In this document: piece by piece, positions 38,461-58,084 of the stretch
Position numbering within the stretch: position 1 is the first letter of the stretch
Layout of the letters: each line of letters opens with the position of its first letter
NCBI GenBank assembly: GCA_937920345.1
Contig: CALGVA010000031.1
Location: 8,824 to 72,823, forward strand
DNA from: an uncultured Lachnospiraceae bacterium
GTDB lineage: Bacteria > Bacillota > Clostridia > Lachnospirales > Lachnospiraceae
Reading direction: 5' to 3'
Length of the DNA: 64,000 nt
Program-made: the position numbers and the translations under genes
The notes under the pieces: generated by a model
Database searches by the model: none
Seen by the model: only the letters and a program-made list of their open reading frames with translations
Told to the model about the DNA's origin: nothing

Positions 38461-38470
38461 AGTTCTTTTC

Positions 38471-41056
38471 CTACGCCGCTTCTTTCCTGTCAATCAGGAG
38501 CGGTGCCATTGTCAACAGTAAACAGAATGCAATGGAACTGCATGGATGGAAGATCCATTCCGTCAGCCCCGCTACCGCGAAGAGAATCAGCAGGGCAAGC
38601 GGCAGCGCCGCACATATCCTGTCCTCTTTGCGTCTATGATAGTACACTGCCGCCTGCACCAGAGTGCCGACGCCCAGCAGAATAAATATCACGCCCACAT
38701 AGATGCCGTGATCATAAGCGACCTGCAGATAGATATTGTGCGCATGGACGTTATAATGACCGTTCGGCTCCATAATACCCATATCGTCATGACCGATCCT
38801 GTTCAGATTATTATAATACAGTCTGAAAATTTTCAGTCTTCCATTTGTATAGGAATCTTCTTCCTCCTGCTCCACGCCATCCTGATTCTCCGCCTGCACC
38901 TGCGTGTCCGCAGATGCGATCTCTATCACGCCTTCCTCCACAGCAATCCCGCTGTCTGTCGGCATATTCCTCACACCTGCGTCTGTATTTCCTGCGGAAG
39001 CAAGAAGAATTTCTTCGTCCTTTGCCCTCACAAAACCGTCCGTGCACTCCTCTCCTGCATCCGTAAGCATGTCCATCGCCTGCAGGCTCTCCATCTCCGG
39101 TATACCCAGCACTTTCATCTGAAACACCTGTATGAACCGCTGAATCGTAATATAGTATTCGGAATCCATATCCCTGCCGTGTACGATCTCGACAGGCAGT
39201 TCCTCGATCTCATGCAGCTCCGGTCTGGCAATCGCAGCAGGAACTGCTCTCTGCGCCGTAAAGACCGCCGGAAAACAGACAAAGACCGCAAGCAGCATCA
39301 TTGCGCCGCCTCGCAGAATACTGCGCCATCTGCTCTTCATGGAGAAGCATGTTACAGGAAGCATGACCACCGCCATGACCATAACTGCCAGATACCCTGT
39401 TCTCGACAGCGTCAGCAGCAGATACACCACCGACACGCCAAACAGAATCAGTTCCTTATAAACAGCAGCAAGTCTCTGTTCTCTTCTATATGCATCTAAG
39501 AACTTCACAAATGCCGCGCACACTACAAGCGCAAGATATACCGCAGACATCGTCACCGTATGGAAAATAAACGGATATCTGTAATATTGAAAGAACATAT
39601 ACGGTCTGTGCAGCAGACAGTACAGCACCATCACGCTAAAGTGCAGCAGGATGCCGTTACAGATATTGCGGAGCAGAGACGCCTTGCCTTCCCACGCCGC
39701 CATGTTCACATAGAACAGCACAAAAGCACATACCAGATAGACAGGCCATCCCCGTGTATTACGATACAACATAATCGCCGCAAAAAACACCGCCACCAGA
39801 ATACCATACGCAGCGCTTATGCCCTTAACCTGCCTCCGCACCAGAACCCGTATCGTGCCAATCACTACCAGTCCCGCAAGAATCCCCGCCCAGACGGTGA
39901 GTTTCACTGTAAGGATCTCCATCTCCTCCGGATCCGTAAGCACCGCCATCGCGCCGTGATAATAACGCTGTGCAAAGAAAGCCGCCGCAATCAGATACAC
40001 CAGATTAATAATATTAAAAATGTCCTTTCGCTTATAAGTCACAATGACCGCCAGCGCAAAGAAAATCAGCTGCTGCCTGTATGCTACGGTATGATGGATC
40101 TCATACAGACCGTTCATATAATTACAGCATGCCCAGAGTGCGCCTGCAATAAAGACAGACTGCAGTCCGTTTCCCATATTTGTTTTCAGAACGTCAAATA
40201 TCGTTCTGTCCGAAGCGCAGCCTGTACGGTCATGGTTGACCGCATAGAGCAGCAGCGCTGCTGTCACCAGGATACTCCCCTCGTAAAAAAGAATCGACAC
40301 GGTATTGGTCGTAAGCAGCCTGCAGGGCCACACCGCCACACAGGCAGCGGCCGCCGCAATCACAATGAGCGGATTACACACTGCTTTGACCGTCTGTTCC
40401 ACCGTAACCAGTACATTCTTCTCCGGCCGCCTGTCATAATATTTCCCCGTCAGGTAAGTAACGGCAGCCGCAAACAACACAAACAGGGCAGCACACACCA
40501 GTGTCTTGCCCTTGCGAAGCGGTACCTCGTACTCATACGCGGCAATCATACAGCGCTGCGTGTCTTCCACATTGCCGTAGTACAGTGTACCGTTGTAAAT
40601 ATTATCTGTCTGCGCCGTATATTGATACGCAACCCGGAACGGTTCTTCGATCCCCTGCAGCAGGAAATAATATTCCCTTCCTACCTGCGTATCGATATTG
40701 ACCTGCACCGTGCAGTATCCCGGAATATGCTTCATATCTTTTGTGTCGATCACCTGCTGCATGATCACCTGCATGGCTGCATCATATAATACGAAGTTAA
40801 ATTCCTCTCCTGCCGTTCCCTCATGGATATAAATATCAATATTTTTCAGTCTGTCATACTGGGCGATGAACATCTGCTGTACCACATAACCTGATGTGAT
40901 CTCTTCAGATTCCATGAGCGTCTCCGGAAGTGTCCTGCCGTTGGCAGTTACCGTTTCCTTAATCAGACGAACCGGCCACAGCGCAAGCAGCGCACACAGC
41001 ACGATGATCCAGAGCGTTTCACAGATCGCCTCTCTTCTAGTGATTATTCTGTTCAT
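38471..41056 (-). CDS. 861-aa Wzy_C/O-antigen-ligase-family membrane protein (WaaL/PglL-like ligase or polymerase)
   Basis: Many TM helices, LSRTGYLAVMVM, and a C-terminal HN-x9-G block (HNIYLQVAYDHG) as in WaaL-type ligases. It also carries a roughly 150-aa soluble insertion with an acidic tract, ENQDGVEQEEEDS. Confidence 0.6.
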   Translation of the reverse strand: MNRIITRREAICETLWIIVLCALLALWPVRLIKETVTANGRTLPETLMESEEITSGYVVQQMFIAQYDRLKNIDIYIHEGTAGEEFNFVLYDAAMQVIMQQVIDTKDMKHIPGYCTVQVNIDTQVGREYYFLLQGIEEPFRVAYQYTAQTDNIYNGTLYYGNVEDTQRCMIAAYEYEVPLRKGKTLVCAALFVLFAAAVTYLTGKYYDRRPEKNVLVTVEQTVKAVCNPLIVIAAAAACVAVWPCRLLTTNTVSILFYEGSILVTAALLLYAVNHDRTGCASDRTIFDVLKTNMGNGLQSVFIAGALWACCNYMNGLYEIHHTVAYRQQLIFFALAVIVTYKRKDIFNIINLVYLIAAAFFAQRYYHGAMAVLTDPEEMEILTVKLTVWAGILAGLVVIGTIRVLVRRQVKGISAAYGILVAVFFAAIMLYRNTRGWPVYLVCAFVLFYVNMAAWEGKASLLRNICNGILLHFSVMVLYCLLHRPYMFFQYYRYPFIFHTVTMSAVYLALVVCAAFVKFLDAYRREQRLAAVYKELILFGVSVVYLLLTLSRTGYLAVMVMAVVMLPVTCFSMKSRWRSILRGGAMMLLAVFVCFPAVFTAQRAVPAAIARPELHEIEELPVEIVHGRDMDSEYYITIQRFIQVFQMKVLGIPEMESLQAMDMLTDAGEECTDGFVRAKDEEILLASAGNTDAGVRNMPTDSGIAVEEGVIEIASADTQVQAENQDGVEQEEEDSYTNGRLKIFRLYYNNLNRIGHDDMGIMEPNGHYNVHAHNIYLQVAYDHGIYVGVIFILLGVGTLVQAAVYYHRRKEDRICAALPLALLILFAVAGLTEWIFHPCSSIAFCLLLTMAPLLIDRKEAA

Positions 41057-41172: not shown

Positions 41173-42984
41173 TTATACCTCCTCCAGCAATATGGCCGCA
41201 AAAAGCGGCAGGCCATACCAGAAGATCAGCACATACCGGGGCAGATAAGTGGGACCGAGCAGAACCGTCAGCCAGACCGTGAGTACCATCATATAGGGAA
41301 TCACAATATTGTACTTGCGGCGGTACAGCATATAAGCGAACACGAAGGCGATGCCCCAGAAGATTCCGCCCGGAGAATAGAGCATGGAATAGATCGGAAT
41401 CTTTTCCTGGGAAATCTCCAGAGCCAGCTTGCGGTATGCCGCGTCAAGCCATGGAATCTTGCTGTCCCTGAATCCCGGTTCCTCCACTTCGTATCCGAAA
41501 TAGGAGCTTTCTCCATATGTGAACGTAAATACCGTATTGCCGGAATAGACATCAATCACCGTATCGGGATACCAGAAGCCGTAGGAGTTCACCAGCCACG
41601 CATTGATATAAGATAAAGGCTTCTTTAATCCGATCCGCAGCCAAAGTCCTGCATACTTCGACTTGTCCGCGGCAAATACCTCATTCTGAAAACGTACCTT
41701 CACCGGATCAGACAGCTTGGGATTGTATAACACCAGCGCCTCTTCCGGCAGGATCTCGTGCAGTATGTCAATATCCTCCTGCTCGAAGGCTTCCCTGTTG
41801 AATTTATAGGTTCTTGCAAGCTGCTGGATCGGAACCGTAAGGATCTCCTGATTCTCTCCTCCTGTTGCATGAAACGCTACCGTCAGCCCTGTGTTAATCA
41901 CGAAATAGGCAAGAAAAATCATACCTATGAGAAGTCCCGTTTTCTTCAGATTCTGTTTGTGATAAACGAGCAGAATCGGCACCATCACGGCGAACGCATA
42001 GACGCCGTTTTTACGAAACAGCATCATGGCCACAGCGCTCAATACGAAGAAAAGCATTTTACGGTTGGATGTGAAAAACTGCTGTTCGACGCTGCCCATA
42101 TCGATCAGCGCCAGCAGCAGGAGCAGCAGTGCCACTGTAAACAGCGTATCCTTGGCGGAGCAGAGCGTAAACATCACGATCACCGGAAAAAAAGCGAAGT
42201 AGAGCAGCGAAAGCAGACGGACCCCGCGGGAAACCTTCCGCCGCCGCATGAAAGAAAGCAGATAGGTAAATCCGCCTGAAACAATCATCATCTGTACCAC
42301 CATATAGCAGGCAATCCCCAGATTATAGGAATCCGTCACTTTATGCACCGCGCAGATGATACCGCCCAGCATAAGAACATGAACGAGCGGATGGTGCGTA
42401 TTAAAATTTCTGGATGCCACCTGCAGCCACTCATCCTGTGCATCGTAGACGAAGAACCCCGGATATACCGCGAGCAGCACGGGAAGCCAGCATAAAATCA
42501 TGAAAAGAAAGGTAAGCAGATTCGCATACCTGGCCGCGCGCTGCGGCGCCTCAGGCATTCTGATATGCTTCGCAAGCCTGTTCTTCCTTCCTTCCATGCC
42601 GCCCAGAAAATCCCAGAATTTTCTCACCAGAACAGTGAACAGACATGTCAGAACCGGCAGTGAAACCCACAGTTTCCAGTCTTTAAAATTCACGTTTCCC
42701 ACCGCATCGAGACGAACGCCAAACAGCATCGCCGCAGTAAACAAACCGGACAGCACGCCTGCGATCGTCCACCCCCTCCGGTCCCGCAGATCAATCGTCT
42801 GCAGCGAGCGGTTCACCGCATACAGACAAAGCAGCCACACGAAAACCGCAAATATACTGTTCGTGAAGCCGATCGTATTCTCTTTCAGATTTAAAACCTG
42901 AGGAAAGCAGAGCGTTCCCGCCGTCGCAAGCAGGAAAGCCAGTGTACTCAGTTTCATTTTGATTCTAAATTCATTCTCGTTCAT
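41173..42984 (-). CDS. GT-C-like polytopic membrane protein (YfhO/ArnT-like role inferred)
   Basis: More than 12 hydrophobic helices, an acidic loop motif VYDAQDEW and a large C-terminal external domain. It overlaps the GtrB-like gene by 14 nt. Confidence 0.45.
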   Translation of the reverse strand: MNENEFRIKMKLSTLAFLLATAGTLCFPQVLNLKENTIGFTNSIFAVFVWLLCLYAVNRSLQTIDLRDRRGWTIAGVLSGLFTAAMLFGVRLDAVGNVNFKDWKLWVSLPVLTCLFTVLVRKFWDFLGGMEGRKNRLAKHIRMPEAPQRAARYANLLTFLFMILCWLPVLLAVYPGFFVYDAQDEWLQVASRNFNTHHPLVHVLMLGGIICAVHKVTDSYNLGIACYMVVQMMIVSGGFTYLLSFMRRRKVSRGVRLLSLLYFAFFPVIVMFTLCSAKDTLFTVALLLLLLALIDMGSVEQQFFTSNRKMLFFVLSAVAMMLFRKNGVYAFAVMVPILLVYHKQNLKKTGLLIGMIFLAYFVINTGLTVAFHATGGENQEILTVPIQQLARTYKFNREAFEQEDIDILHEILPEEALVLYNPKLSDPVKVRFQNEVFAADKSKYAGLWLRIGLKKPLSYINAWLVNSYGFWYPDTVIDVYSGNTVFTFTYGESSYFGYEVEEPGFRDSKIPWLDAAYRKLALEISQEKIPIYSMLYSPGGIFWGIAFVFAYMLYRRKYNIVIPYMMVLTVWLTVLLGPTYLPRYVLIFWYGLPLFAAILLEEV

Positions 42985-43924
42985 TACTTTGCTCCGGTCC
43001 GTTCAGGCATTCCCGAACCACATACTGAGGAGAGTTATTCAGCGAGATGTAGATTCTCCCGATATATTCTCCGATCAGACCTAACATCAGCATAATCATA
43101 CCGCCGAGGAACACCAGCGCCGCCATCATGGCGCTGAATCCGACGGGTACATTCGGATTCACAAATTTCTTGACAACTGTATAGATTCCGTACAGGAATC
43201 CTGCGCAGGCAGTCAGGCATCCCACCGCCGTTGCGATTCGCAGCGGTTTGATGCTGAAAGCGGTAAATCCGTTAAACCACAATCCCAGCAGCTTGCCTAT
43301 GGTATAGCCCGACGTTCCCGTCTCCCGCTCCCTGTGCGTTACTTCCACGTTGGTGATATTCCTGGTGGCGCGGAGCACAAGTCCGATCACATACGGATAC
43401 GGGTTGTCATAGCGCAGCATCTCTTCCACTACATATCTTCTCACCGCAAAATAACTGGAGAGGTACAGGTCTTTCGGTTTGCCCAGCATCACCCTCGTCA
43501 TCAGTTCATTGACACGGCTCCCGAAATTGCGGAATCCCGAATGCTGTTTGTGCCCGTATCTGGCATATACGACGTCATAGCCTTCTTCAATCCTGGCAAG
43601 CAGTCTGCCGGCCTCGTCAGCAGGCGTCTGCCCGTCATCGTCCAGACATACCACCACATCTCCGTGCGTATGACGCATACCCGCCATCAGCGCCGCATGC
43701 TGCCCGAAATTCTTCGCCAGATCGATCCCGCATATGTCACTGCGTCCGGCGCAAAGCTCCCGGATCACCCCGAATGTATCATCCGGAGAACTGTCGTTGA
43801 CCAGCACGATCTCATAGTCATACGCCGGCATATCTTTCATCGTGCTGTCAATCTCTTCCACTACCTTACCGATGGTCTGTGCCGACCGGTAACACGGGAT
43901 TACAAAACTTACAAGTTTCGTCAT
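42971..43924 (-). CDS. GtrB/ArnC/CsbB-like polyprenyl-phosphate glycosyltransferase (GT2 with two C-terminal TM helices)
   Basis: VSFVIPCYRSAQTIGKVVEEI, IVLVNDSSPDDT, CLDDDGQ. The two C-terminal TMs are TAFSIKPLRIATAVGCLTACAGFLYGIY and FSAMMAALVFLGGMIMLMLGLIGEYIG. GGAGG lies 5 nt before the ATG at 43924. Confidence 0.75.
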   Translation of the reverse strand: MTKLVSFVIPCYRSAQTIGKVVEEIDSTMKDMPAYDYEIVLVNDSSPDDTFGVIRELCAGRSDICGIDLAKNFGQHAALMAGMRHTHGDVVVCLDDDGQTPADEAGRLLARIEEGYDVVYARYGHKQHSGFRNFGSRVNELMTRVMLGKPKDLYLSSYFAVRRYVVEEMLRYDNPYPYVIGLVLRATRNITNVEVTHRERETGTSGYTIGKLLGLWFNGFTAFSIKPLRIATAVGCLTACAGFLYGIYTVVKKFVNPNVPVGFSAMMAALVFLGGMIMLMLGLIGEYIGRIYISLNNSPQYVVRECLNGPEQSNERE

Positions 43925-43972
43925 CGTTTCCTCCATATCCAAACTGCCCCTGACATAATTTCAGCAGCAGGC

Positions 43973-44584
43973 TTATTGTCCAGTCTCCGCTTCATACATC
44001 GCCATAAACCGCTCCCTGTCAGTCTCCATAAAAAGCACTTCCCGCCTCCCCTGCTTCGTCATGACAGTCTCTTTCCTGTCCGTCATAACAAAACCGGCAT
44101 GCTCATAACTCTTCCGGGCCGCCGTATTGCCCGCCAGAAAGCGCAGATAGATCTTCCGCAGAGGCAGCTTCGTAAAAGCATAGTAAAGCGCCTCCCTCGC
44201 CGCCGCCGTACCGTAACCGTGTCCGAGCGCCTCCTCTTCCCCGATAAAAATTCCGTACTCGGCAGCGCCCTGATCCCTGTCAATATCGCGGAAATAAACG
44301 CTGCCGATCTCCCGGCCGTCGGGCAGGCAGATGATGAACTGTACTACATGCCCCTTCTCCACCTGGTTCCGAATCCATGACAGATGTCCCTCTCTTGTAA
44401 AAGGCTCCTGATATATAAAGTTTGTCTGCACAAAATCCTTATTGCGCCACGCGACGATTTTGTCCGTATCTTCCTCTGTCATCGGGCGCAGGTCAACCGT
44501 ATTCTGCATCGTTTTGTCTGTAAACGCTCTCCTTCTTCCGCTTTCTGATCTATCACAAGGCATTTCACACTGCTGCCGCAGCAT
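43973..44584 (-). CDS. GNAT-family N-acetyltransferase (PseH/WecD-like role possible)
   Basis: LRPMTEEDTDKIVAWRN...EYGIFIGEEEALGHGYGTAAAREALYYAF is a GNAT acetyl-CoA block. The start is uncertain because no candidate ATG has a good SD. Confidence 0.6.
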   Translation of the reverse strand: MLRQQCEMPCDRSESGRRRAFTDKTMQNTVDLRPMTEEDTDKIVAWRNKDFVQTNFIYQEPFTREGHLSWIRNQVEKGHVVQFIICLPDGREIGSVYFRDIDRDQGAAEYGIFIGEEEALGHGYGTAAAREALYYAFTKLPLRKIYLRFLAGNTAARKSYEHAGFVMTDRKETVMTKQGRREVLFMETDRERFMAMYEAETGQ

Positions 44585-44595
44585 ATATGCATCGA

Positions 44596-46662
44596 TTATC
44601 TGACTTCGATCCGGTAAACACGATATGTCCCGGCGTCTCCGATCACATCTGCCTGCTCTACAGTCACTCCGATATTATGCGCTGCATAATACGCCGTGAT
44701 CCAGTCCATTCCGCGCTCTGCCTGCTCAGCACTGGACATGATAAAATACACATGATCCTGCGTATACAGCGCATCGCCTGCGTTGTCGATCCCCGACCGC
44801 CGCAGTTTCTCACGGTACAACGGACTCTTACACATCCATCCGCCCATGATATCATAATTGGCATAGCCGTTGTCGGAACCGTCAAACAATCTGTGTGAAA
44901 ATGCCACCGTGGAATACACATCCTCGAAATAGAAATTTCCCTCATGCGCTCTGCAGTACGCATCGATCGCCTCTCTGTCCTGATTGACCAGCTCCCTGCG
45001 CATCTGATCCTCCCGCACCGCCGGGACACTGTCCATCAACGCGGCCATAAGAAGCACGCCCGCCAGAACTGCCAGACCGCGCGCCATTCCTTGTCCGGAC
45101 ATCGTATCGGCGCATCGTGCGTTTCTGCCGGCCGGTGCATGCCCCCGCACTGTACCGCCCATACTGCTGTCATCTGCCCGCAGTCTTAGTACCAGCATAC
45201 CCATAAGCAGCGCAAACTCCGCAAGATACAAGGAATGTGTGATCCGCTCGGGATCACGTCCTCTCATGAGAATGAACATCCACAGCGCGCTGCGCACAGC
45301 CGCCAGTAATACCAGCTGCCACACGAAAACATATCGTCTGCCTGTCCTCTCTCCGGCAGTCTTCACATATTTCCGGCTCCTGTTATGTTCTGCCGGTCTT
45401 ACATGTTTTCCGTCCTGTTTCGTCTTGTCCTCTGCTGCACGCAGCCGCCACGCCGTTAAAATGCCCGTCAGAAACACCGCCGCATACGCCCAGAGCACCA
45501 TGATATTGTAAGGTGCATCGCCGCTGTGCAAAGTCCGGTAGCGGTAGAAGCCGAGCTTTTCCCGAAAAATGCCCGGCCAGTCCTTCGAGGCGCCGATCGT
45601 ATGCACGGCATAATCCGCCAGTTCTGACAACAATGCCGTGTCGATCGCTTCATCCAGTCCAAAATTGTAATTGCGAAGCAGCGTCTGCTGATGCGGTGCT
45701 GCACCAAGTTCCGTAAGTGCGCCGCTGTAGCTGTCATCAGTGATGAGCTCCGGATAAAAGTCATAGACCGTCGTTCTGGCATCGAAGAAATCCCTGAAAT
45801 CTTTCCACTGCGCACTGCTGTATGCAGCCTTATCCGCCACGAAAGACAGAAACATTCCAATTAGTATGATCCCCAGCACGCCGCCGTATTTGTATAGATT
45901 TTCTTTCAGGAATATCTTCCGCTCCTCCACGAGACGATACAGGCCCGCCAGACAGATCAGGGGAAAAGTGAGCAGCAGCATCTCAGAGCGTAACTGGTAA
46001 GCCGTCACCACAAGGATAACGGAAGGAATATTTTTTACAACAAACCGGCGCGTATCCAACCCCGCCGGCGTGGTCAGAAATAAAAAGATCGCAGCCGCCG
46101 ACAGCATCGTGCAGGTAATCGTATACTGTATATTGATCAGGTGGGACAGGCACACACCCCATAAATACAGTGATAAGCCCAGAAGTACGGCACATTTGCG
46201 CAGCAGGTTGTCCCCGCGCTTTTGCCCCGTATACTCTGTTCTGCTTCCACACAGCGCACACAGCCTCATACCGGCCAGATAAAAACTGCCGAACTGACAC
46301 AGGCACAGAAACAGTCCGTACCACGGTATCGTCCTGCACATTCTATAGCACAGCGCAATCAGCGCGCCCAGCGGATACAGGGTCTGCATGTTATGCCCGT
46401 CAGGCGTTCCGCTGTATATGCCCGCCATGATATCACGCATCATCGTGTCATCATTTAAGTCATAATAGAAGTCAAAGCAGATCCCCATCAGAATCACATT
46501 GGCTGCTATGAAGCCCAGCGCAAGTATGCAGTTCTCATATTTTCTTATTCCCCTGTCCTGTTCCATGGACTGCATACCCTCTGAATTCCTTTCATGGACG
46601 CTGTTTTGCCTGGTCTTATATGCATCCGCTTTTGTCAAAAGCGTTGTCGCACATACCTTCAT
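44596..46662 (-). CDS. GT-C-like polytopic membrane protein
   Basis: An N-terminal membrane domain with YYDLNDDTMMRD after TM1 and a C-terminal soluble domain. The start may be further downstream (M33, GAGGG upstream). Confidence 0.45.
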   Translation of the reverse strand: MKVCATTLLTKADAYKTRQNSVHERNSEGMQSMEQDRGIRKYENCILALGFIAANVILMGICFDFYYDLNDDTMMRDIMAGIYSGTPDGHNMQTLYPLGALIALCYRMCRTIPWYGLFLCLCQFGSFYLAGMRLCALCGSRTEYTGQKRGDNLLRKCAVLLGLSLYLWGVCLSHLINIQYTITCTMLSAAAIFLFLTTPAGLDTRRFVVKNIPSVILVVTAYQLRSEMLLLTFPLICLAGLYRLVEERKIFLKENLYKYGGVLGIILIGMFLSFVADKAAYSSAQWKDFRDFFDARTTVYDFYPELITDDSYSGALTELGAAPHQQTLLRNYNFGLDEAIDTALLSELADYAVHTIGASKDWPGIFREKLGFYRYRTLHSGDAPYNIMVLWAYAAVFLTGILTAWRLRAAEDKTKQDGKHVRPAEHNRSRKYVKTAGERTGRRYVFVWQLVLLAAVRSALWMFILMRGRDPERITHSLYLAEFALLMGMLVLRLRADDSSMGGTVRGHAPAGRNARCADTMSGQGMARGLAVLAGVLLMAALMDSVPAVREDQMRRELVNQDREAIDAYCRAHEGNFYFEDVYSTVAFSHRLFDGSDNGYANYDIMGGWMCKSPLYREKLRRSGIDNAGDALYTQDHVYFIMSSAEQAERGMDWITAYYAAHNIGVTVEQADVIGDAGTYRVYRIEVR

Positions 46663-46685
46663 TCAGGCAGTACCTTTTTCGTCTC

Positions 46686-47813
46686 TTAACAGTAGAAATC
46701 CTTCACCTGCTCCGCAATGTACTCCGTCTCGTCCGCGGTCAGCGTATAGAACATAGGCAGGCGCAACAGTCTATCACTTTCCTTTGTCGTATACTTATCC
46801 TCCCCGTGGAATCTGCCGAACTTCATGCCTGCCGGCGCAGAGTGCAGCGGCACATAGTGGAATACCGCCAGAATATCCTTCTCCGCCAGGAAATGAATCA
46901 GTCTGGTCCGCTCCTCCATATCTTTCGTCTTAATATAAAACATATGTCCGTTATGTTCACAGTACTCCGGCACATAAGGCAGTTCGATCTTCCCCGCCTC
47001 CGCCAGCGGTGAAAGCAGTTCCTGATACTGCTTCCATCTGTTAAGTCTTGCCTGCGTAATCTCCTCCGCCTGTTCTAACTGCGCGTACAGATAAGCGGCA
47101 TTCATGTCGCTGGGCAGATAGGAAGACCCATAGTTCTGCCAGCGGTACTTATCTACCTGCCCGCGGTAATATTTGCTCCTGTCCGTTCCCTTTTCCCGAT
47201 AGATTTCCGCCGCCTCAATATACTGTTCATCCCGTATGAGCAGCGCACCGCCCTCACCCATACTGAAATTCTTCGTCTCGTGGAAGCTGAAGCAGCCAAA
47301 ATCCCCGAAGGTTCCAAGCGGCCTGCCCTTATAGGAAGCCATGATTCCCTGTGCCGCATCCTCGACCACCATCAGGTTATGCCGTCTCGCAATGTCCATG
47401 ATGGCGTCCATCTCGCAGCCCACACCTGCATAGTGTACCGGCACAATAGCCCTGGTATGCTCCGTAACAGCGTCCTCAATCAGACGCTCGTCCATATTCA
47501 TAGTTTCCGGTCTGATATCCACGAATACGGCCGTCGCACCGCGCAGCACAAATGCATCCGCCGTGGACACGAATGTATAGGACGGCATGATCACCTCGTC
47601 CCCCGGCTTGATTTCCGCCAGCAGTGCCGCCAGTTCCGTCGCATGGGTGCACGAAGTCGTAAGCAGGCACCTGGCTGTACCGGTCTGCCGCTCGATCCAC
47701 TCGCTGCACTTTCTTGTAAAGGGTCCGTCTCCACAGATCTTCTGGTTCTCGACGGCCTGCTTCATATACTCAAATTCTTTGCCCGTAAAAGGAGGCACGT
47801 TAAAGTTGATCAT
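46686..47813 (-). CDS. wecE: dTDP-4-amino-4,6-dideoxygalactose transaminase
   Basis: Near-collinear similarity to E. coli WecE as I recall it: FNVPPFTGKEFEYMKQAV..KICGDGPFTRKC, GDEVIMPSYTFVSTADAFVLRGA, VPVHYAGVGCEMD, FSFHETKNFSMGEGGALL, RGQVDKYRWQNYGSSY, HMFYIK, VFHYVPLH, TTKESDRLLRLP. Confidence 0.85.
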   Translation of the reverse strand: MINFNVPPFTGKEFEYMKQAVENQKICGDGPFTRKCSEWIERQTGTARCLLTTSCTHATELAALLAEIKPGDEVIMPSYTFVSTADAFVLRGATAVFVDIRPETMNMDERLIEDAVTEHTRAIVPVHYAGVGCEMDAIMDIARRHNLMVVEDAAQGIMASYKGRPLGTFGDFGCFSFHETKNFSMGEGGALLIRDEQYIEAAEIYREKGTDRSKYYRGQVDKYRWQNYGSSYLPSDMNAAYLYAQLEQAEEITQARLNRWKQYQELLSPLAEAGKIELPYVPEYCEHNGHMFYIKTKDMEERTRLIHFLAEKDILAVFHYVPLHSAPAGMKFGRFHGEDKYTTKESDRLLRLPMFYTLTADETEYIAEQVKDFYC

Positions 47814-47853
47814 GTCTGTAATCCTCTCTGTATGCTGCTTCGATGATTTCTAT

Positions 47854-47882
47854 AGTATACCACACTCTCACTCTGGTGTCAC
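47854..47882 (-). promoter_or_regulatory. candidate sigma-A promoter upstream of the wecE-like gene
   Basis: The minus strand reads GTGACA-17 nt-TATACT, preceded by TGG (extended -10). The -35 overlaps the stop codon of the upstream gene. GAGAGGA lies before the ATG at 47813. Confidence 0.4.
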
Positions 47883-49718
47883 ATATACTACATAGCGGGC
47901 GTTACTGAAACTTTCCTGATAGGAATGCGCCTGCATATATGCCCCCAGGATCTGCAGTTTCTCGTCCTGATCCAGCTTCTCCTGGTCTGCACCGAACCAG
48001 TTCATGCCGTCCGCATCCTCGTTCAGATATGCCGCCACGGCGGAGGATACGATTACCACGGGCGGTTCTTCCAGCCGTGTCATATCCCGCTCGTACTCCA
48101 CCATGCGGTAGGAGTCCAGATCCGGCCAGAACGTTGACAGCGCCGAGGGCATATCGAGCAGATACCCTAACCCCGGCACTTCCCCGTACAGGATCACTTC
48201 TCTGCCTGCAAGCTGTGCCTGCCGCACATATTCCGCCAGTTCCGTAAGATGCGCCGCATTGTCCCGACCGGTGTAGATGCCCGCCGCTTTGGCCGGCGCT
48301 GTCAGCAGTGTGTCGCGCGCTTCCCCGTTTCTGCCGTCCTGAAAAGAAAAGTACCGATGAAATCCCACACTTTGAATCAAAAGAAATATCACAAACAGGA
48401 AAAACGGCAGCCCTATTGCCTTTGCGCCCATTTCCTGCTCAACCGTATCTCTTTCACCCGCAAGCCGGTCATACGCGATCCACAGCACGAACGGCACTAC
48501 GATAAACAGATTGTTGATGATCGGATACAGCTGATTATTGCCGCCAAGCGGCGTAACAAAAATCTGTACCAGCACCAGCACCGCCAGGATCTTCTGTTCC
48601 TGTCTTATGCTTTTGCTGCACAGACAGTATACCGCCGTGTAAATTGCCACGAGTAAGAACATCACTGCCGGATAATAGACACTGCCAAAATCATAATAGC
48701 GGAAATGGAACACGCCTCTGCCCCAATAGAACCGCAGAAGTACTAATAGTACCACCGCATAAACTGCTTTGCACAATACCTCTGCGCCCTTGATCCCCGG
48801 AAAGAGCTTCCTTCGCAGCGTAAAAAGCACAAGGCCTCCCGCCATGCAGATGACTGCGAAAGCCATCCAAAACAAACCTGTCTCGTAGTCCCCGAACATG
48901 CCCGTCAGCATGGCGGTCGGCTTATAGTCCGTCGCCTTCTCCGTCATGGCAAACATAGTCTGCACCATGGCGGGATACGCGCCGGCGCCGTACCGGATAC
49001 AGATCGCCGCAAGCGGAATCCCGAACCCGGTCACATATCCGGCCATACACCACAGTGTATCGCGAACCGCCTGCCGGCATGTGCGTCCGCAGACCGCCGT
49101 GCCGTACCACAGCGCCACGATGCACGCCGCCTGCACCACATTCGGCATACGGACCGCCACATTGGCGCCCAGACAGATACCGGCCGCGATATAGTATCTC
49201 CGGTCTTCCTTAAGAATACCGCGGTAGAGAAGCAGTATCCCCGCCGCCATAAACAGATATGTCATGTAATTGTATAAAACCGTGGAGGGACACCAGCACA
49301 GCCCCAGCGCGAGAAACTCCCCCGCAAATGCAAGCGGCATCGGCATCCGGCCTGCAGATCGGTCTCTCCTGCGAAACGCCTCATATACCACAAGCGCCGT
49401 AAGTGACTGTATCAGCGCCGTATAGAAATACATTCCCGGCAGCGTGTCGCCGTAAGGCAGATGCATGAGCAGACTGCCAAGCGCATTCGCCAGAAACGTC
49501 GCCACCATCCACGTACCGTCCATGGACGCAAAATACTGGAAATTCGCCAGACTGTACGTCGTGTCCGCCACATCAATCCCCTGCCGGATCCTAAGTAGCG
49601 GATATAAAATCAGAATGACCGGAAACACGACGCGCTCTATGAGGTTTTGATATTTGTGATACACTACCGTCACACTTTTCATAATCTTGTACTTTCCTTC
49701 CGGTCTCCGCTTCGCCAT
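47868..49718 (-). CDS. GT-C-like polytopic membrane protein
   Basis: More than 12 helices and a C-terminal soluble domain. The track ORF (to 49949) overlaps the acyltransferase gene by 172 nt. The internal ATGs at 49718 or 49682 both have SD-like sequences and remove the overlap. Confidence 0.45.
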   Translation of the reverse strand: MAKRRPEGKYKIMKSVTVVYHKYQNLIERVVFPVILILYPLLRIRQGIDVADTTYSLANFQYFASMDGTWMVATFLANALGSLLMHLPYGDTLPGMYFYTALIQSLTALVVYEAFRRRDRSAGRMPMPLAFAGEFLALGLCWCPSTVLYNYMTYLFMAAGILLLYRGILKEDRRYYIAAGICLGANVAVRMPNVVQAACIVALWYGTAVCGRTCRQAVRDTLWCMAGYVTGFGIPLAAICIRYGAGAYPAMVQTMFAMTEKATDYKPTAMLTGMFGDYETGLFWMAFAVICMAGGLVLFTLRRKLFPGIKGAEVLCKAVYAVVLLVLLRFYWGRGVFHFRYYDFGSVYYPAVMFLLVAIYTAVYCLCSKSIRQEQKILAVLVLVQIFVTPLGGNNQLYPIINNLFIVVPFVLWIAYDRLAGERDTVEQEMGAKAIGLPFFLFVIFLLIQSVGFHRYFSFQDGRNGEARDTLLTAPAKAAGIYTGRDNAAHLTELAEYVRQAQLAGREVILYGEVPGLGYLLDMPSALSTFWPDLDSYRMVEYERDMTRLEEPPVVIVSSAVAAYLNEDADGMNWFGADQEKLDQDEKLQILGAYMQAHSYQESFSNARYVVYVTPE

Positions 49719-49777
49719 TCTCTCCTGATTGTTCGCCTTCGGCAAGGTTGCCGGGTGCAAAGTCCTGACCCGAACTG

Positions 49778-50848
49778 CTATCTTTTCTTCGCTTTGTGCA
49801 CAAACAGCTTCCGCACCCCGAGGAAAATCCGTGCCCTCACACAATCGACCATTGTACCGGCCGCATACACGATCAGCACACACCCGGCCATATGCGGAAT
49901 AAACGCCCAGCTTCCCTGTACAGCATCCACATGAAGCCACTGCATCCACTGATACCGCATCAGGATATGCTCATGCAGCAGATACACGCCGAATGTATAG
50001 GGTGCAAGCCGCCTGATCCGTTCTGCCGCCACGCCCTCCCACGGTTTCATATCCCGAAACAGCATAAACAGTCCCACCGACGCAAGCAGACACAGGACAT
50101 GGTTATACGTATCCGGCATATCCATATAATAGGCAAGCGGCGGCAGCACCTCCGCCAGACTGCCCGATACCGCAGTGAGCACAGCCATGCCAAGACACAT
50201 ACCTGCATATAGAAAAGCCGCATTTCTCTTCTTCTCGAGCCCCGGCAGCCCGTAGAGCCGTATATACGCCGCGATCAGAAAAAGAAACAAAAACCAGCCG
50301 TAGTCATAGCCGTATCGGTCCGTCGCCAGCTTCGCCGGCACGACAGACTTCCAGATACAGAAATAAAGGGCCAGCACGCCAATGATGATCCGCAGTGTCT
50401 TCCGGTCCACGGCTCTCACCCCCGCCGCCAGAAGCGGCGCAAACAGATACAGAACCAGATATGCCGTGGCAAACCAGTAATGCTCCGTCTCGACCGGCAG
50501 CACATAATTCAGCCAGTCATATACCGACAGTTCACCCGGAGATACCACGCCGGCACAGATCAGCACGACCGGAATCAGAAGCGAATAAAAAAGAATCTGC
50601 GCTGCCAGAGACACCACACGCCCCGGTTTCCAGACAGACTCCACCATAAAATACCCGCCAAGCAGCACATAGCAGTTCACCGCGACAATACAGAATGCCT
50701 CTATGAGATGCGCCGCATGGTTCACCGCGGAATGATCCTGTGTATATGGCTGGATCAAGCCGCCCTTATTCAGATAGTGAAGGACAATGATCATCAGCAT
50801 CGCCACAATACGCAGCAGTTCAAAATTCGCCTGTCGTTTTCCCCGCAT
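49778..50848 (-). CDS. acyltransferase-3 family membrane O-acyltransferase (OafA/WecH-like)
   Basis: FELLRIVAMLMIIVLHYL N-terminal signature and about 10 TM helices. Confidence 0.8.
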   Translation of the reverse strand: MRGKRQANFELLRIVAMLMIIVLHYLNKGGLIQPYTQDHSAVNHAAHLIEAFCIVAVNCYVLLGGYFMVESVWKPGRVVSLAAQILFYSLLIPVVLICAGVVSPGELSVYDWLNYVLPVETEHYWFATAYLVLYLFAPLLAAGVRAVDRKTLRIIIGVLALYFCIWKSVVPAKLATDRYGYDYGWFLFLFLIAAYIRLYGLPGLEKKRNAAFLYAGMCLGMAVLTAVSGSLAEVLPPLAYYMDMPDTYNHVLCLLASVGLFMLFRDMKPWEGVAAERIRRLAPYTFGVYLLHEHILMRYQWMQWLHVDAVQGSWAFIPHMAGCVLIVYAAGTMVDCVRARIFLGVRKLFVHKAKKR

Positions 50849-50871
50849 AGCCTTTTCCTCTATTCTTCATG

Positions 50872-51300
50872 TCACTTTTTTTCCTTAAAGATCCATAACT
50901 TACTCAGAAAATAATTTGCCAGAATCACAATCACCTGACACACAAATTTGGAGATAAACTCGTTCAGATGCGCGCAGTCCACCATCAGAAACATAAGCGC
51001 GACTTCCAAAAGCTCCGTCGCAACTCTTGCGCCGATGAACGAGGCAAATTCCCCGAACAGAGACTTCGCATCTTTATTTTTGCTTTTAAAAACAAAAGTA
51101 CGGTTTGTCCAGTACGCAAACACAACCGTCAGCGCCCATGACAGCACAGTCGCCACCAGATAGTGCAGATCCATCACTTTTGAAAACAGATAATAGAGCG
51201 CATAATTCAGTACAAATGCAAGAAAACCGAAGATCAGATAATTGATCCCTTCCTCGTACTTCTTATACATGCCCCAGCCGAAATCCCATAATTTTTTCAT
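50872..51300 (-). CDS. GtrA-family small membrane protein
   Basis: 142 aa with four helices: INYLIFGFLAFVLNYALYYLF, WTNRTFVFKS, VILANYFLSKLWIFK. Confidence 0.75.
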   Translation of the reverse strand: MKKLWDFGWGMYKKYEEGINYLIFGFLAFVLNYALYYLFSKVMDLHYLVATVLSWALTVVFAYWTNRTFVFKSKNKDAKSLFGEFASFIGARVATELLEVALMFLMVDCAHLNEFISKFVCQVIVILANYFLSKLWIFKEKK

Positions 51301-51397: not shown

Positions 51398-53155
51398 TTA
51401 TCTTTTCCCCTCTATGACCGCCTTGCCGCCCGCCACCCGGTAAACCATATCACATTTCTCGATCGTCTGCAGCCTGTGCGCAATAATAATCAACGTCTTG
51501 CGCCCGTGCAGCCTGTTAATGGAATCCATGATGGCCGCCTCCGTCTCATTGTCAAGCGCCGACGTGGCTTCATCTAACACCAGCACCTCCGGGTCCTCGA
51601 AGAGCGCTCTGGCAATGCCGATCCTCTGCCGCTGTCCGCCTGACAGCCGTATTCCCCGCTCACCGATGCTCGTATCCAGACCTTCCGGAAGTCCTCTCAC
51701 GAACTCGTCGAGCTGCGCTTCTCTGAGTGCCTCCCACACCTTGTCATCATCTATGTCCTCATCCGGACAGCCAAACGCCACGTTCTTGCGTATCGTAGAA
51801 TCAATCATGAAGATCGTCTGCGGAATATAACCGATATTCTTAAGCCATGAGGCATAATGTTCCCGCACCTCCACGCCGTCCGCAAGGATACTGCCTGTCT
51901 CGATCTGCAGCAGTCCCAGCAGAATATCCACCACAGTCGTCTTACCCGCACCGGAAGTTCCCACGATCCCCACCGACTTGCCGACAGGAATGGTCATCTC
52001 GGCGTGGTCGAAAATCAGCACGTCCGTGTTGGGATATTTATAGGTAATGTCTTTCAGCACAATATCCTTTTTAATATCCAGCTTCTCTACTTCTGTCTTT
52101 TTCTGATACGTTTTCTCATCATAGTCGATGTTCTCATCCCGGATCTCCTCCTGCAGATTATCGCTCACACCCATAAAGAACGGCTCGAAGTAGGAGATTG
52201 AGGTCAGATGGTTGTTGATCCTGTTTGCACAGGGAATCAGCCGCATCGCCACCATGGCCAGCAGCGTGATCTGCGGCAGAATATCCATTGCTCCGGTCCC
52301 GCCGATGATCTGGATCATCAGATACAGCACCATACTTGCGATCGCCATCGTCTCGATCAGCAGCCGCGGCGTGGCATTGTAGAGATTGTACCGCTGTACC
52401 GCGCCGACATATCCGGCGCCGCATTTGGAATACTCGTTGATAAAATAGTTCTCTTTACGGGCAATCTTGATCTCCTTGATTCCCATGACCGACTGATCGA
52501 TCCATTTATACAGCCCGCTGTAATAATCCTGATTCTCTTCACCGGCCTTCTTCATGATCGGCTTTAAAATACACATGATAACCAACAGTGCCGCAAGAAG
52601 AACCACCGTCACCGTTATGCTCATCCAGACATCCGCCACCAGACTGACAACCACCAGACAGACAAATACGATACTTTCGCTGATCAGCTGCAGGAGCGAC
52701 AGGATCAGCCCGTACATGTTATTGACATCCGATGTGATATTGCGCTGAATCACTGCGGTGTCCGCATTCAGATAATATTCGTAGGGACGCTCCATGAAAT
52801 TGATCATCATTCTTCTGGAAGTGGCAAACTGATTCGTATAGACGAACCGGAGCTGAATCTTCTGCTGGAAAAACAGAAAAATATTTTTGGCCGCAAATAC
52901 CAGAATCAAGCCGCTCATTACGATGATCGTCAGATCCCTGCTGTTGTCCGTATGAAAAATTCTGCAGATAACCTGAAGATACTCGTGGTTCTCGATCGCA
53001 TTCTCCTCCAGCACCACGTTCATAACCGGATAGATCATGGAAACGCCCAGCGTCTCTAAAACCGCCCCGATCAGCATGAGAAAGACAAGCAGCACCATTT
53101 TACGCTTCTGCCGCCCGTCCAGTAAAACCATCAGTTTTTTATATATTTTAATCAT
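51398..53155 (-). CDS. fused TMD-NBD ABC exporter (MsbA/PglK architecture), second copy
   Basis: GTSGAGKTT, LSGGQRQRIGIARAL, VLVLDEATSALD. The track start (GTG at 53224) lies upstream of the predicted -10, so I used the ATG at 53155. Confidence 0.85.
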   Translation of the reverse strand: MIKIYKKLMVLLDGRQKRKMVLLVFLMLIGAVLETLGVSMIYPVMNVVLEENAIENHEYLQVICRIFHTDNSRDLTIIVMSGLILVFAAKNIFLFFQQKIQLRFVYTNQFATSRRMMINFMERPYEYYLNADTAVIQRNITSDVNNMYGLILSLLQLISESIVFVCLVVVSLVADVWMSITVTVVLLAALLVIMCILKPIMKKAGEENQDYYSGLYKWIDQSVMGIKEIKIARKENYFINEYSKCGAGYVGAVQRYNLYNATPRLLIETMAIASMVLYLMIQIIGGTGAMDILPQITLLAMVAMRLIPCANRINNHLTSISYFEPFFMGVSDNLQEEIRDENIDYDEKTYQKKTEVEKLDIKKDIVLKDITYKYPNTDVLIFDHAEMTIPVGKSVGIVGTSGAGKTTVVDILLGLLQIETGSILADGVEVREHYASWLKNIGYIPQTIFMIDSTIRKNVAFGCPDEDIDDDKVWEALREAQLDEFVRGLPEGLDTSIGERGIRLSGGQRQRIGIARALFEDPEVLVLDEATSALDNETEAAIMDSINRLHGRKTLIIIAHRLQTIEKCDMVYRVAGGKAVIEGKR

Positions 53156-53214
53156 AACCGCTGCGTGCCCTTTCCGAATCCCAAGCGTCTGTCTCAAATC
53201 CAAAATATCATTAT

Positions 53215-53244
53215 ATTTTAGCACAGGAGTGGAAGAAATTGCAA
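53215..53244 (-). promoter_or_regulatory. candidate promoter for the ABC/GtrA/... operon
   Basis: The minus strand reads TTGCAA-18 nt-TAAAAT, preceded by TGC (extended -10). Confidence 0.4.
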
Positions 53245-53324: not shown

Positions 53325-53858
53325 ATGACCAGAGTAAGATTTTATGAGAATGCAGCTGATAAGCTGCTTAAATTCGCCGTGATTATATCCAGATATCAGA
53401 ATAAATATGTCTTCTGCAAGCACAGAGACCGGGATACCTGGGAGGTGCCCGGCGGTCACCGTGAGCCCGGAGAAGACATTACAGATACAGCCAGACGGGA
53501 ATTGTATGAGGAGACAGGCGCTCTGGAATACGACTTATCGCCCGTCTGCGTCTATTCCGTTACCGCGCCTGATAATTTCGACGGCGCCGAGACCTTCGGG
53601 ATGCTGTACTTCGCCGATATTAAGCGATTTGAAGCGGAATTACACAGTGAGATCGAGAAGATCACGCTGACGGAGTGTCTGCCGGAACGTCTGACTTATC
53701 CCGATATCCAGCCCGTCTTAATGAAAGAAGCGGCACGGCGCAGGCATTTATCGGATGTCCGCGCAATCAGATCATCTCATTCTGTCTGTGAACCTCCGGG
53801 GGTTCATATTTGTCCAGAAAGTCCTCTCCTAAGAAAAGCACTTCCTCCGCAAATTTGA
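53325..53858 (+). CDS. NUDIX hydrolase
   Basis: Nudix box GGHREPGEDITDTARRELYEETG. This is the only plus-strand gene in the locus. Its last 92 nt overlap the convergent gene. Confidence 0.8.
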   Translation: MTRVRFYENAADKLLKFAVIISRYQNKYVFCKHRDRDTWEVPGGHREPGEDITDTARRELYEETGALEYDLSPVCVYSVTAPDNFDGAETFGMLYFADIKRFEAELHSEIEKITLTECLPERLTYPDIQPVLMKEAARRRHLSDVRAIRSSHSVCEPPGVHICPESPLLRKALPPQI

Positions 53859-56087: not shown

Positions 56088-56198
56088 TTCGTCACCGTTT
56101 CTTTCCGGAATATTTTCATAAGGATTCCGATACCCAAAAGTATATATCCGAATCTTTCCCGGCAGATTATACCTTTCGTCTGCAACACACTTTATAAT

Positions 56199-57251: not shown

Positions 57252-57253
57252 AA

Positions 57254-57988: not shown

Positions 57989-58084
57989 AGTTTTCTCCAT
58001 TTCTGCGCTGCTTTTGTCTCAACTATGTTGAGACGTCGCATTAAACGAGTTTGTGGCAAGCAACGCGCAGACACAAATCTCGCG

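Follow-up and report, generated by a model that had tools for sequence, protein, structure and literature searches.

Some bacteria load amino sugars onto a polyprenyl phosphate and use them outside the cell. In the systems of Francisella (FlmF2/NaxD/FlmK), Bordetella (LgmA/B/C), and mycobacteria (PpgS/Rv3779), a family 2 glycosyltransferase (GT2) similar to ArnC makes the polyprenyl-phosphate-linked amino sugar, and a glycosyltransferase of the GT-C type transfers it outside. All of them rely on UDP-GalNAc or UDP-GlcNAc together with a deacetylase and, to our knowledge, none starts from a dTDP-4-amino-6-deoxyhexose. A gene block which may do so is analyzed here. It lies at positions 41173 to 51300 of a 64-kb stretch of DNA (the window) from an uncultured member of the Lachnospiraceae, a family of dominant gut commensals about whose surface glycans, as far as we know, almost nothing has been learned. 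The block encodes an ArnC/GtrB-type GT2, a GtrA-family protein, a membrane acyltransferase (AT3), a WecE-type transaminase, a GNAT N-acetyltransferase, and three large membrane proteins, here named GTC1, GTC2, and GTC3, the last of which belongs to family DUF6020.

The use of a single GT-A enzyme to feed two GT-C enzymes has been described both for GttA, which works with GttB and GtlB, and for PgfS, which works with PgfM1 and PgfM2 (PMC8035078, PMC12041528). Moreover, there are Gram-positive GT-C enzymes which lack any Pfam domain, and have been recognized only through structural matches to ArnT, STT3, or PglB (PMC8035078).

Proposed mechanism

In a first-pass annotation of the DNA, the block was interpreted as a system that decorates a surface polymer with a sugar supplied by WecE, by means of a polyprenyl-phosphate GT2, a flippase of the GtrA type, and GT-C transferases that act outside. 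The overall logic of this proposal agrees with the family, fold, and loop evidence presented below, and the general mechanism (lipid loading, flipping, and transfer outside) is considered very probable. In this mechanism, the ArnC/GtrB-type GT2 would load undecaprenyl phosphate (Und-P) at the cytoplasmic face with one sugar taken from a nucleotide sugar, and GtrA would flip the resulting Und-P-sugar to the outer face. The GT-C-type proteins DUF6020 (translationally coupled to GT2), GTC2, and GTC1 would then attach the sugar to an extracytoplasmic acceptor, and AT3 would O-acylate the product. The candidate acceptor is a glycan. PglF, DegT, and PglC would prime it, strain-variable glycosyltransferases would lengthen it, a PglK-like ATP-binding cassette (ABC) protein would export it, and a Wzy_C protein would handle it.

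The most parsimonious donor would be the product of WecE, dTDP-4-amino-4,6-dideoxygalactose, either N-acetylated by the GNAT protein or not, which would yield Und-P-linked 4-amino-4,6-dideoxygalactose (Fuc4N) or its N-acetylated form (Fuc4NAc). The precursor dTDP-4-keto-6-deoxyglucose would be supplied by RmlA and RmlB, whose genes would lie in another part of the genome. The assignment of a WecE-derived amino sugar as the donor is a tentative one, in which our confidence falls just short of even. When mechanism and donor are taken together, with the donor flagged as something that we infer, the case appears evenly balanced. A bolder formulation is that the ArnC-like GT2 accepts a dTDP-sugar to make Und-P-Fuc4N(Ac), an undescribed class of lipid-linked donor, and that two or three GT-C families not annotated before, together with the Wzy_C protein, install or polymerize the 4-amino-4,6-dideoxyhexose outside, on a surface glycan or glycoprotein that gut Lachnospiraceae have in common; in this complete form, the proposal is rather doubtful.

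The GT2 enzyme and the three large membrane proteins

The nine open reading frames (ORFs) of the block were all found at the positions originally assigned to them, on the minus strand, and family-model scans identified GtrA, AT3, WecE, GNAT, and the ArnC/GtrB-type GT2 as had been annotated. The GT2 protein holds a Glycos_transf_2 domain at residues 12-175, followed by C-terminal membrane helices at residues ~236-257 and 265-295. Its closest solved relatives, all of them matched over the full length, are ArnC (166 bits), GtrB sll0501 (115 bits), and DPMS (57 bits). The protein is 32.8% identical to Escherichia coli ArnC, also over the full length, and scores 158 bits on the NCBIfam model for PgfS. 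On the ArnC equivalog model (NF007986) it reaches 192 bits against a cutoff of 529, which makes it a homolog of ArnC and not an ortholog. The GT2 gene overlaps the next gene, which encodes DUF6020, by 14 nt.

GTC1 is the membrane protein with the most clearly recognizable fold. Its family, in which no Pfam domain is recognized, comprises at least 562 proteins, and the AlphaFold (AF2) model of GTC1 has a predicted local distance difference test score (pLDDT) of 77.6 and a predicted template modeling score (pTM) of 0.77. When this model was compared with the Protein Data Bank (PDB) by using Foldseek, all top 15 matches were GT-C enzymes (STT3, ArnT, EmbB, PglB, AftA, ALG12, and PMT). Those to STT3 had E values of 2e-5 to 8.6e-4 and template modeling (TM) scores of 0.43-0.48 (the best with E 2e-5 and TM 0.45), and that to ArnT had an E value of 1.5e-3. 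The predicted structure thus clearly shows a GT-C fold. At the sequence level, the protein scores 19.5 bits on the PMT_2 model (cutoff 26.1), which 4 of 39 homologs match, and no match to the STT3, PglB, or AglB families was obtained. Residue D52 is invariant and D49 is conserved in at least 90% of the sequences; both are located right behind the first transmembrane helix, opposite the Lys/Arg-rich N-terminus. The C-terminal extracytoplasmic domain also holds an invariant T-F-W-x-D-L-x-S segment (residues 529-536), whose F530-W531-x-D533 part bears a loose resemblance to the WWDYG motif of STT3/PglB.

GTC2 has at least 1,140 homologs, and no Pfam domain is present in any of them. Since these homologs span only 95% of the longer ORF, translation may start at 46572 instead of 46662. 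The AF2 model (pLDDT 73.5, pTM 0.80) falls below a pLDDT of 50 in the EL1 region. After the first transmembrane helix, an invariant acidic loop is found (F33-D34-F35-x-x-D38-L-N40-D41-D42, and then D47), and the topology fits the positive-inside rule if this loop and the C-terminal domain are outside. On the basis of the model, GTC2 is a probable GT-C enzyme. A Foldseek comparison of the same model with viral structures was uninformative.

The third protein scores 125.2 bits on the DUF6020 model PF19484 (cutoff 28.3), which is matched by all 54 diverse relatives, in a family that comprises 7,457 representatives at 50% clustering. Two residues are invariant in members only 25-48% identical: D181, in a Y-D-A-x-x-Q sequence just past a membrane helix, and D279, in a K-D pair at the outer end of another helix. 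According to the positive-inside rule, both face outward. A few family members also match PMT_2 (2.3e-5), DUF2142 (2.6e-8), and Glyco_transf_22. A literature search on DUF6020 retrieved no papers, and one on GT-C systems of Lachnospiraceae retrieved nothing relevant.

The description of these proteins as three GT-C-like enzymes therefore needs to be graded, being based on predicted structure for GTC1, remaining probable for GTC2, and depending for DUF6020 on indirect evidence, namely the family cross-matches, the outward-facing D181 and D279, a local profile match to the GTC1 family, and the setting of a distant member in a rhamnan-type locus. By contrast, the outward acidic loop following a membrane helix, which had been predicted for them, is borne out by the invariant acidic residues of all three. 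Their description as paralogs has to be abandoned, as the best BLASTP E value among them is 0.026 and the hhalign probabilities are 0.1-0.9%. GTC1, GTC2, and DUF6020, each with 560 to at least 1,900 homologs, are by sequence three families that are unrelated or very distantly related. The sole signal of similarity is that the DUF6020 profile locally matches members of the GTC1 family, with E values down to 8e-6 in a set of 510 sequences. YfhO (PF09586) matched neither the three proteins nor their aligned homologs, sequence and profile searches of PDB sequences with the three returned nothing relevant, and no BLASTP or hidden Markov model (HMM) similarity to E. coli ArnT was found for them.

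Two further observations concern these families. GTC1 residues 390-480 and GTC3 residues 320-390 have in common an [R/G]-N-N-x-[I/L]-Y pattern, two membrane helices, and a G-x-x-x-E-x-L-T-[V/A]-P stretch leading into the external domain, which may reflect a very distant common ancestry; it is this pattern that underlies the local match of the DUF6020 profile at E 8e-6. A distant DUF6020 member (25% identical) was also observed in another locus (L082:8965-11800), where it overlaps an upstream AT3 gene within a streptococcal-type rhamnan locus holding RmlD, DUF1972, an ABC2 transporter, RgpF, and an LtaS-like sulfatase. This context fits a role of DUF6020 in extracytoplasmic side-chain decoration. 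Other members are orphan or tandem genes.

WecE, GNAT, and the supply of the amino sugar

The annotation of the transaminase as WecE was corroborated by its score on the NCBIfam equivalog NF008687 (630 bits, cutoff 375), and by its 64.5% identity to E. coli WecE (4PIW) over 361 residues. In a survey of 12,939 genomes, the Fuc4NAc pathway was encountered in Gammaproteobacteria only (PMC7725333). An enzyme this similar to that of E. coli, and kept across gut Lachnospiraceae, is therefore notable in itself. Its value as a neighbor of the glycosylation genes, which had already been pointed out, was strengthened by the comparison of related loci described in the next section, since WecE, GNAT, and DUF6020 are all present in 81 of 81 of them. 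The additional statement that wecE has its own promoter was only partly upheld. A promoter-like site does precede the gene (47882-47854), but the evidence for it is its fit to the consensus, and the region holds hardly more such sites than chance would give (28 found versus 19.9 +/- 4.5 expected).

The GNAT protein scores 72 bits on the PseH family (cutoff 93), and its solved relatives are SpeG-like and MJ1062-like. With E. coli queries, tblastn detected no homolog of WecD or WecF (GT56) in the window or the related loci.

Other genes of the window were considered in relation to this pathway. Both the TviC-like epimerase (28879-29868) and the PglF-like dehydratase were rejected as RmlB candidates, because their scores of 160 and 60 bits fall short of the cutoff of 365 and their identity to E. 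coli RffG is 29%. On the other hand, a stand-alone sugar N-formyltransferase (Formyl_trans_N and C domains; 122 bits to ArnA and 127 bits to the PRK06988 model) is encoded at 26921-27874, 15 kb from the block and in the variable region, and it could N-formylate a 4-amino sugar, judging from its domains. The natural donor of ArnC is a 4-formamido sugar, and an N-formylated WecE product is thus a possible donor as well.

Conservation of the gene order and the six-gene cassette

The block was compared with 81 related loci, taken from 80 species-representative genomes and one metagenome contig, all of which contain GTC2 by construction. The gene order in the 81 loci is [GT52]-ABC-GtrA-AT3-GTC1-WecE-GTC2-GNAT-GT2-DUF6020-Wzy_C-PglF-DegT-[PglC], and it is invariant even though GTC2 diverges to 45% identity. 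As a consequence, the block has to be regarded as the middle of a larger conserved core, and its borders had been drawn too narrowly: the unit also includes the PglK-like ABC exporter, the Wzy_C protein, PglF, a second DegT, and PglC. The flanks, in contrast, are strain-variable, and the GT4, TviB, and TviC genes of the window have no counterpart in any of the 81 loci.

Three loci (L045, L046, and L060) show how this unit can be divided. In them, only WecE-GTC2-GNAT-GT2-DUF6020-Wzy_C matched window proteins within ~10 kb, and the conserved unit is accordingly made of two separable sub-modules. Within that distance of the three cassettes, no homologs were detected of GtrA, the ABC exporter, AT3, PglF, NeuB, or the second DegT, nor of the other glycosyltransferases or phosphoglycosyltransferases of the window. 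GTC1 is likewise absent, save for one distant homolog (28% identical) at the edge of L046. In L045, the cassette is preceded by an unrelated polytopic membrane protein of 417 aa with no Pfam match. Since the surroundings of the cassettes hold no homologs of the other window glycosyltransferases, GT2 is the one potential consumer of a dTDP-amino sugar that was detected there.

Evidence for and against a WecE-derived donor

A donor derived from WecE is favored because WecE and GNAT are universally co-inherited and persist in the six-gene cassettes. It is also favored because GT2 scores higher with ArnC, whose donor carries a 4-formamido group, than with the glucose-specific GtrB (166 versus 115 bits). 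An Und-P-linked 4-amino-4,6-dideoxyhexose is a plausible candidate donor. The originally proposed link to WecE is in this way sustained by co-inheritance and by the cassettes, but it is weakened by loci in which GT2 is missing.

These loci are among several observations that weigh against the proposed donor and the scheme built on it. GT2 is cleanly deleted in 7 of the 81 loci (L016, L022, L036, L062, L063, L065, and L078), with at most 100 nt remaining between the GNAT gene and that for DUF6020 (for instance, L022:12267-12367), and in L016 a C-terminal GT2 remnant of 26 residues is still present. All seven keep GtrA, AT3, WecE, GNAT, and the three large membrane proteins. One of them, L022, comes from the cultured isolate 'Bacterium 0.1xD8-71', and its DUF6020 protein retains the catalytic-looking Asp residues. 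As these seven genomes keep WecE in the absence of GT2, the coupling between both proteins is not obligatory at the locus; either GT2 can be replaced from elsewhere, or WecE/GNAT and the GT-C enzymes function independently of it. In addition, all the characterized polyprenyl-phosphate GT2 enzymes that we know of use UDP- or GDP-sugars, and never dTDP-sugars. Examples of enzymes with such donors can be found in PMC8035078 and PMC12041528, and a literature search on dTDP-dependent Und-P transferases yielded nothing relevant. With regard to the precursor, the reported lack of rmlA and rmlB in the window held in Pfam and NCBIfam scans of all large ORFs and in tblastn searches with E. coli RffH and RffG, in which neither the window nor any of 86 loci yielded a homolog of RmlA or RmlB; RffG only produced the 29% matches to the TviC-like and PglF-like enzymes of the window, and nothing better in the 86 loci. 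The GNAT protein shows no similarity to WecD and may, from its family matches, belong to the adjacent UDP-sugar or nonulosonate pathway; indeed, being PseH-like at 72 bits, it could equally serve the neighboring UDP-sugar pathway. The fold evidence for GTC2 is weak, with ArnT (5F15) as the top Foldseek match at a probability of 0.97, an E value of 0.027, and TM scores of 0.32/0.37, followed by AftA (probability 0.57) and ALG3 (0.47) as the only other long matches, none of them at E <= 0.001. DUF6020 is a likely GT-C enzyme, but this assignment is an indirect one. Finally, the acceptor is a candidate, the most likely one being the glycan primed by PglF/DegT/PglC.

Some of these data would also fit an ordinary Gtr/CsbB-type system. 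In it, GT2 would use a UDP-sugar to charge Und-P with a common hexose or HexNAc for the GT-C enzymes, WecE and GNAT would independently make dTDP-Fuc4NAc for a cytoplasmic Leloir enzyme encoded elsewhere, and the interleaving of the genes would reflect shared regulation and not a shared pathway. The donors of the characterized GT2 enzymes and the retention of WecE and GNAT in the seven loci without GT2 speak for it, as does the abundance in the window of Leloir glycosyltransferases able to take a dTDP-sugar. However, these Leloir enzymes are strain-variable (GT4, TviB, and TviC in 0 of 81 loci), whereas WecE and GNAT occur in 81 of 81; no homologs of the other window glycosyltransferases lie near the six-gene cassettes, and no WecF (GT56) homolog was found by tblastn. 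This explanation is considered possible but somewhat unlikely. A chance juxtaposition of unrelated surface-polysaccharide genes is hardly credible and strongly disfavored. Polysaccharide loci are mosaic and the flanks of the window are strain-variable, but the order is invariant in 81 loci despite proteins that diverge to 45-50% identity, genes overlap or are separated by short gaps, and the six-gene cassette recurs in a different genomic neighborhood.

Two other possibilities, both unlikely, retain part of the mechanism. At least one of the large membrane proteins might act on an exported undecaprenyl-pyrophosphate-linked oligosaccharide, as would be the case if GTC1 were an oligosaccharyltransferase resembling STT3/PglB, or a polymerase acting jointly with the Wzy_C protein. 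STT3 subunits outrank ArnT among the fold matches of GTC1, although the differences in TM score among the GT-C matches are small and no sequence match to STT3, PglB, or AglB accompanies them. The presence of GTC1 in the same sub-module as the PglK-like ABC exporter points in this direction too, but GtrA is co-conserved with GTC1, and the unit already holds a ligase candidate of the Wzy_C type. The invariant F530-W531-x-D533 segment in the external domain and the retention of the GT-C proteins in the loci without GT2 can also be counted in its favor. The remaining possibility concerns only the state of the amino group. The donor would be the free amine Und-P-Fuc4N, giving a cationic decoration more closely analogous to charge modification by 4-amino-4-deoxyarabinose (Ara4N) or galactosamine (GalN), while GNAT would serve the PglF/DegT UDP-sugar or a nonulosonate pathway. 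PseH is the best family match of GNAT (72 bits), with no similarity to WecD; upstream of the gene are those for NeuB, a CMP-transferase, and a PseG-like-domain protein, and downstream are those for PglF and the LegC-like DegT. Nevertheless, the PseH score is below the cutoff, and GNAT stays in six-gene cassettes with no PglF, NeuB, or second-DegT homologs nearby. With respect to the donor preferred here, the WecE-derived amino sugar, the question is directly testable, since both a natural cultured isolate without GT2 ('Bacterium 0.1xD8-71', RAYR01) and an isolate with GT2 ('Bacterium 1xD42-87', RAYM01) exist.

Genomic context of the block

All 64 kb of the window form one locus for glycan biosynthesis, which is encoded on the minus strand and has ~51% GC and a strongly negative GC skew. 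Its closest relatives are cultured and uncultured gut Lachnospiraceae, the nearest being the mouse-gut metagenome-assembled genome MGBC108720, whose GTC2 homolog is 95% identical. The features of the conserved unit are compiled in Table 1.

Table 1. Features of the conserved unit, with the number of related loci in which each was found (window coordinates unless another locus is given).
Feature	Position	Strand	Evidence or context	Related loci
GT52-family (sialyltransferase-like) glycosyltransferase, upstream edge of unit	53767..54876	-	Pfam Glyco_transf_52, E 9e-11	57/81
PglK/MsbA-type ABC exporter, presumed lipid-linked-oligosaccharide flippase	51398..53224	-	ABC_membrane + ABC_tran	73/81
GtrA-family small membrane protein, presumed Und-P-sugar flippase	50872..51300	-	PF04138, 84 bits (cutoff 26.1)	74/81
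Acyl_transf_3 (AT3) membrane acyltransferase, presumed glycan O-acetylase	49778..50848	-	PF01757, 90 bits	74/81
Membrane protein 1 (GTC1), predicted GT-C-fold glycosyltransferase with C-terminal extracytoplasmic alpha/beta domain	47868..49718	-	AF2 model and Foldseek	
Promoter-like site 5' of wecE	47854..47882	-	GTGACA-17-TATACT + TG, 10/12 consensus matches	
WecE ortholog, dTDP-4-keto-6-deoxy-D-glucose 4-aminotransferase	46686..47813	-	NF008687, 630 bits	81/81
Membrane protein 2 (GTC2), probable GT-C	44596..46662 (start maybe 46572)	-	AF2 model and Foldseek	
GNAT N-acetyltransferase	43973..44584	-	Acetyltransf_3, 83 bits	81/81
ArnC/GtrB-type polyprenyl-phosphate GT2	42971..43942	-	Glycos_transf_2, 98 bits	74/81
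Membrane protein 3 (GTC3), DUF6020, likely GT-C	41173..42984	-	PF19484, 125 bits	81/81
861-aa Wzy_C-domain membrane protein (WaaL/PglL/Wzy-like ligase, oligosaccharyltransferase or polymerase)	38471..41056	-		73/81
PglF/CapD-type membrane-anchored UDP-GlcNAc 4,6-dehydratase	36568..38493	-	Polysacc_synt_2, 410 bits, + CoA_binding_3	68/81
Second DegT aminotransferase (LegC/PglE-like), for UDP-4-keto sugar	35343..36494	-	DegT, 320 bits; LegC family, 377 bits (cutoff 420)	
Small PglC-type phosphoglycosyltransferase, priming enzyme	34657..35307	-	Bac_transf, 208 bits	
Six-gene cassette	L045:7538-17603		between IleRS, glycogen phosphorylase and LytTR/XRE regulator genes	

The best NCBIfam model for the ABC exporter is PglK (345 bits, below the cutoff), and the PglF protein is PseB-like (185 bits). 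PglC was seen in 36 of the 81 loci, a count limited by the length of the available flanks. The gene for the Wzy_C-domain protein always lies immediately 3' of the DUF6020 gene. The window protein matches the Wzy_C model with 22 bits (E 1.6e-4, cutoff 31.7), and all 24 homologs match it too (best E 2e-7); conserved are an SRTG sequence at residues 551-554 and H773-N774-x9-G784. In ~20 loci, as well as in L022, inserts of 1.1-4.5 kb separate the DUF6020 and Wzy_C genes. That of L022 (14090-16913) encodes a 496-aa MBOAT-looking protein (DltB/AlgI type) and a 461-aa DltD/AlgX-looking protein, both identified by eye from the translations, which would form an accessory O-acylation pair.

Upstream of the ABC exporter, the sole plus-strand gene of the region is an ORF with a NUDIX domain (53325-53858, E 9e-13), which overlaps the GT52 ORF at the 3' end of the latter and is missing at that position in L001. 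The stretch 53767-60457 holds a nonulosonic-acid set composed of GT52, an ATP-grasp L-amino-acid ligase, NeuB, a CMP-sugar synthetase, and a 768-aa protein with a C-terminal PseG-like Glyco_tran_28_C domain. Together with PglF, the LegC-like DegT, and the PseH-like GNAT, this set could constitute a pathway of the pseudaminic or legionaminic type, as far as the family matches go.

In the strain-variable part of the window, a DUF6056 polytopic membrane protein (77 bits) adjoins a second ABC exporter of the MsbA/PglK type (9303-10850 and 11908-13809), and it may be a fourth GT-C-like enzyme. Two AsnB-type glutamine amidotransferases (15937-17892 and 20401-22338) are encoded among GT4 genes, close to the TviB- and TviC-like enzymes, which suggests that uronic acids of the strain-specific glycan are amidated, as in GalNAcAN.

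Comparison with known systems

The locus gives a probable function to three large families of uncharacterized membrane proteins, two of them with no Pfam model and the third being DUF6020. If the donor is an Und-P-linked 4-amino-4,6-dideoxyhexose, a new lipid-linked sugar would be added to the known set, a polyprenyl-phosphate GT2 would be shown to be able to use a dTDP-sugar, and a WecE-dependent sugar would be placed in Firmicutes. The six-gene cassette would then be a self-sufficient machine for extracytoplasmic glycosylation with amino sugars, bringing to abundant gut Firmicutes a sugar pathway that has so far been described in Gammaproteobacteria alone. With an ordinary UDP-sugar as the donor, the block would be a routine, though unusually rich, decoration system of the Gtr type.

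Of the two names in the original label of the block, Gtr/Arn-like, the first is justified by the GT2/GtrA/GT-C logic, while the likeness to Arn is only one of analogy. The Arn pathway also uses a DegT-family 4-aminotransferase, an Und-P transferase of the ArnC type, a flipping step, and a GT-C transferase, and in it the 4-amino group is N-acylated before lipid loading, as it might be here. The block differs in that GtrA stands in place of ArnE/F, no protein resembles ArnT (GT83), ArnD is missing, the transaminase is WecE, which acts on a dTDP-hexose, and not ArnB, which acts on a UDP-pentose, and the host is a Gram-positive bacterium devoid of lipid A. Membership in the Arn pathway was rejected, given the ArnC score of 192 against 529 and the absence of ArnT, ArnD, and ArnE/F from the block. 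A split Arn pathway assembled from the nearby Ugd-like, epimerase, and formyltransferase genes was also discarded, as the first two are TviB- and TviC-like enzymes for UDP-GlcNAcA, with no homologs in the related loci.

The Fuc4NAc branch of the enterobacterial common antigen (ECA) pathway, formed by RmlA/RffH, RmlB/RffG, WecE, WecD, and WecF, resembles the block in the presence of WecE beside an acetyltransferase of the GNAT fold. No homologs of RffH, RffG, WecD, WecF, WzxE, or WzyE are found in the block, and membership in this pathway beyond WecE was rejected on the basis of the tblastn searches for WecD, WecF, RffG, and RffH. Moreover, ECA synthesis relies on the Leloir glycosyltransferase WecF, which adds Fuc4NAc in the cytoplasm, whereas the block is proposed to act outside.

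The Pgf system of Streptococcus mutans (PgfS, PgfM1, PgfE, and PgfM2) is similar to the block in having one GtrB-type GT2, several proteins of the GT-C type (two in Pgf), a sugar-modifying enzyme within the operon (the epimerase PgfE), and an extracellular action, which for the block is a proposed one (PMC12041528). It differs in that PgfM1 and PgfM2 carry a YfhO domain, GalNAc obtained from UDP-GlcNAc/GalNAc is the sugar used, and the acceptors are Ser/Thr-rich regions of proteins (PMC12041528). The same basic design is shared with other Gram-positive systems, such as CsbB/GtcA/YfhO, GtlA/GtlB, GttA-GttB-GtlB, CsdA-F with CflA, GacI/GacL, and SccN/SccM, which combine a membrane GT2 that makes a C55-P-sugar, a flippase of the GtrA type, and a GT-C enzyme with an extracellular acidic motif (PMC8035078). 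Unlike them, the block shows no match to YfhO, and just GTC1 matches PMT_2, below the threshold. It also combines three GT-C-type families with a single GT2 in one operon, and its genes are accompanied by those for an ABC exporter resembling PglK and for a Wzy_C protein. Lastly, while UDP-sugars provide the Glc, Gal, or GlcNAc that these Gram-positive systems add, the block interleaves a dTDP-4-aminosugar transaminase and a GNAT protein with its glycosylation genes.

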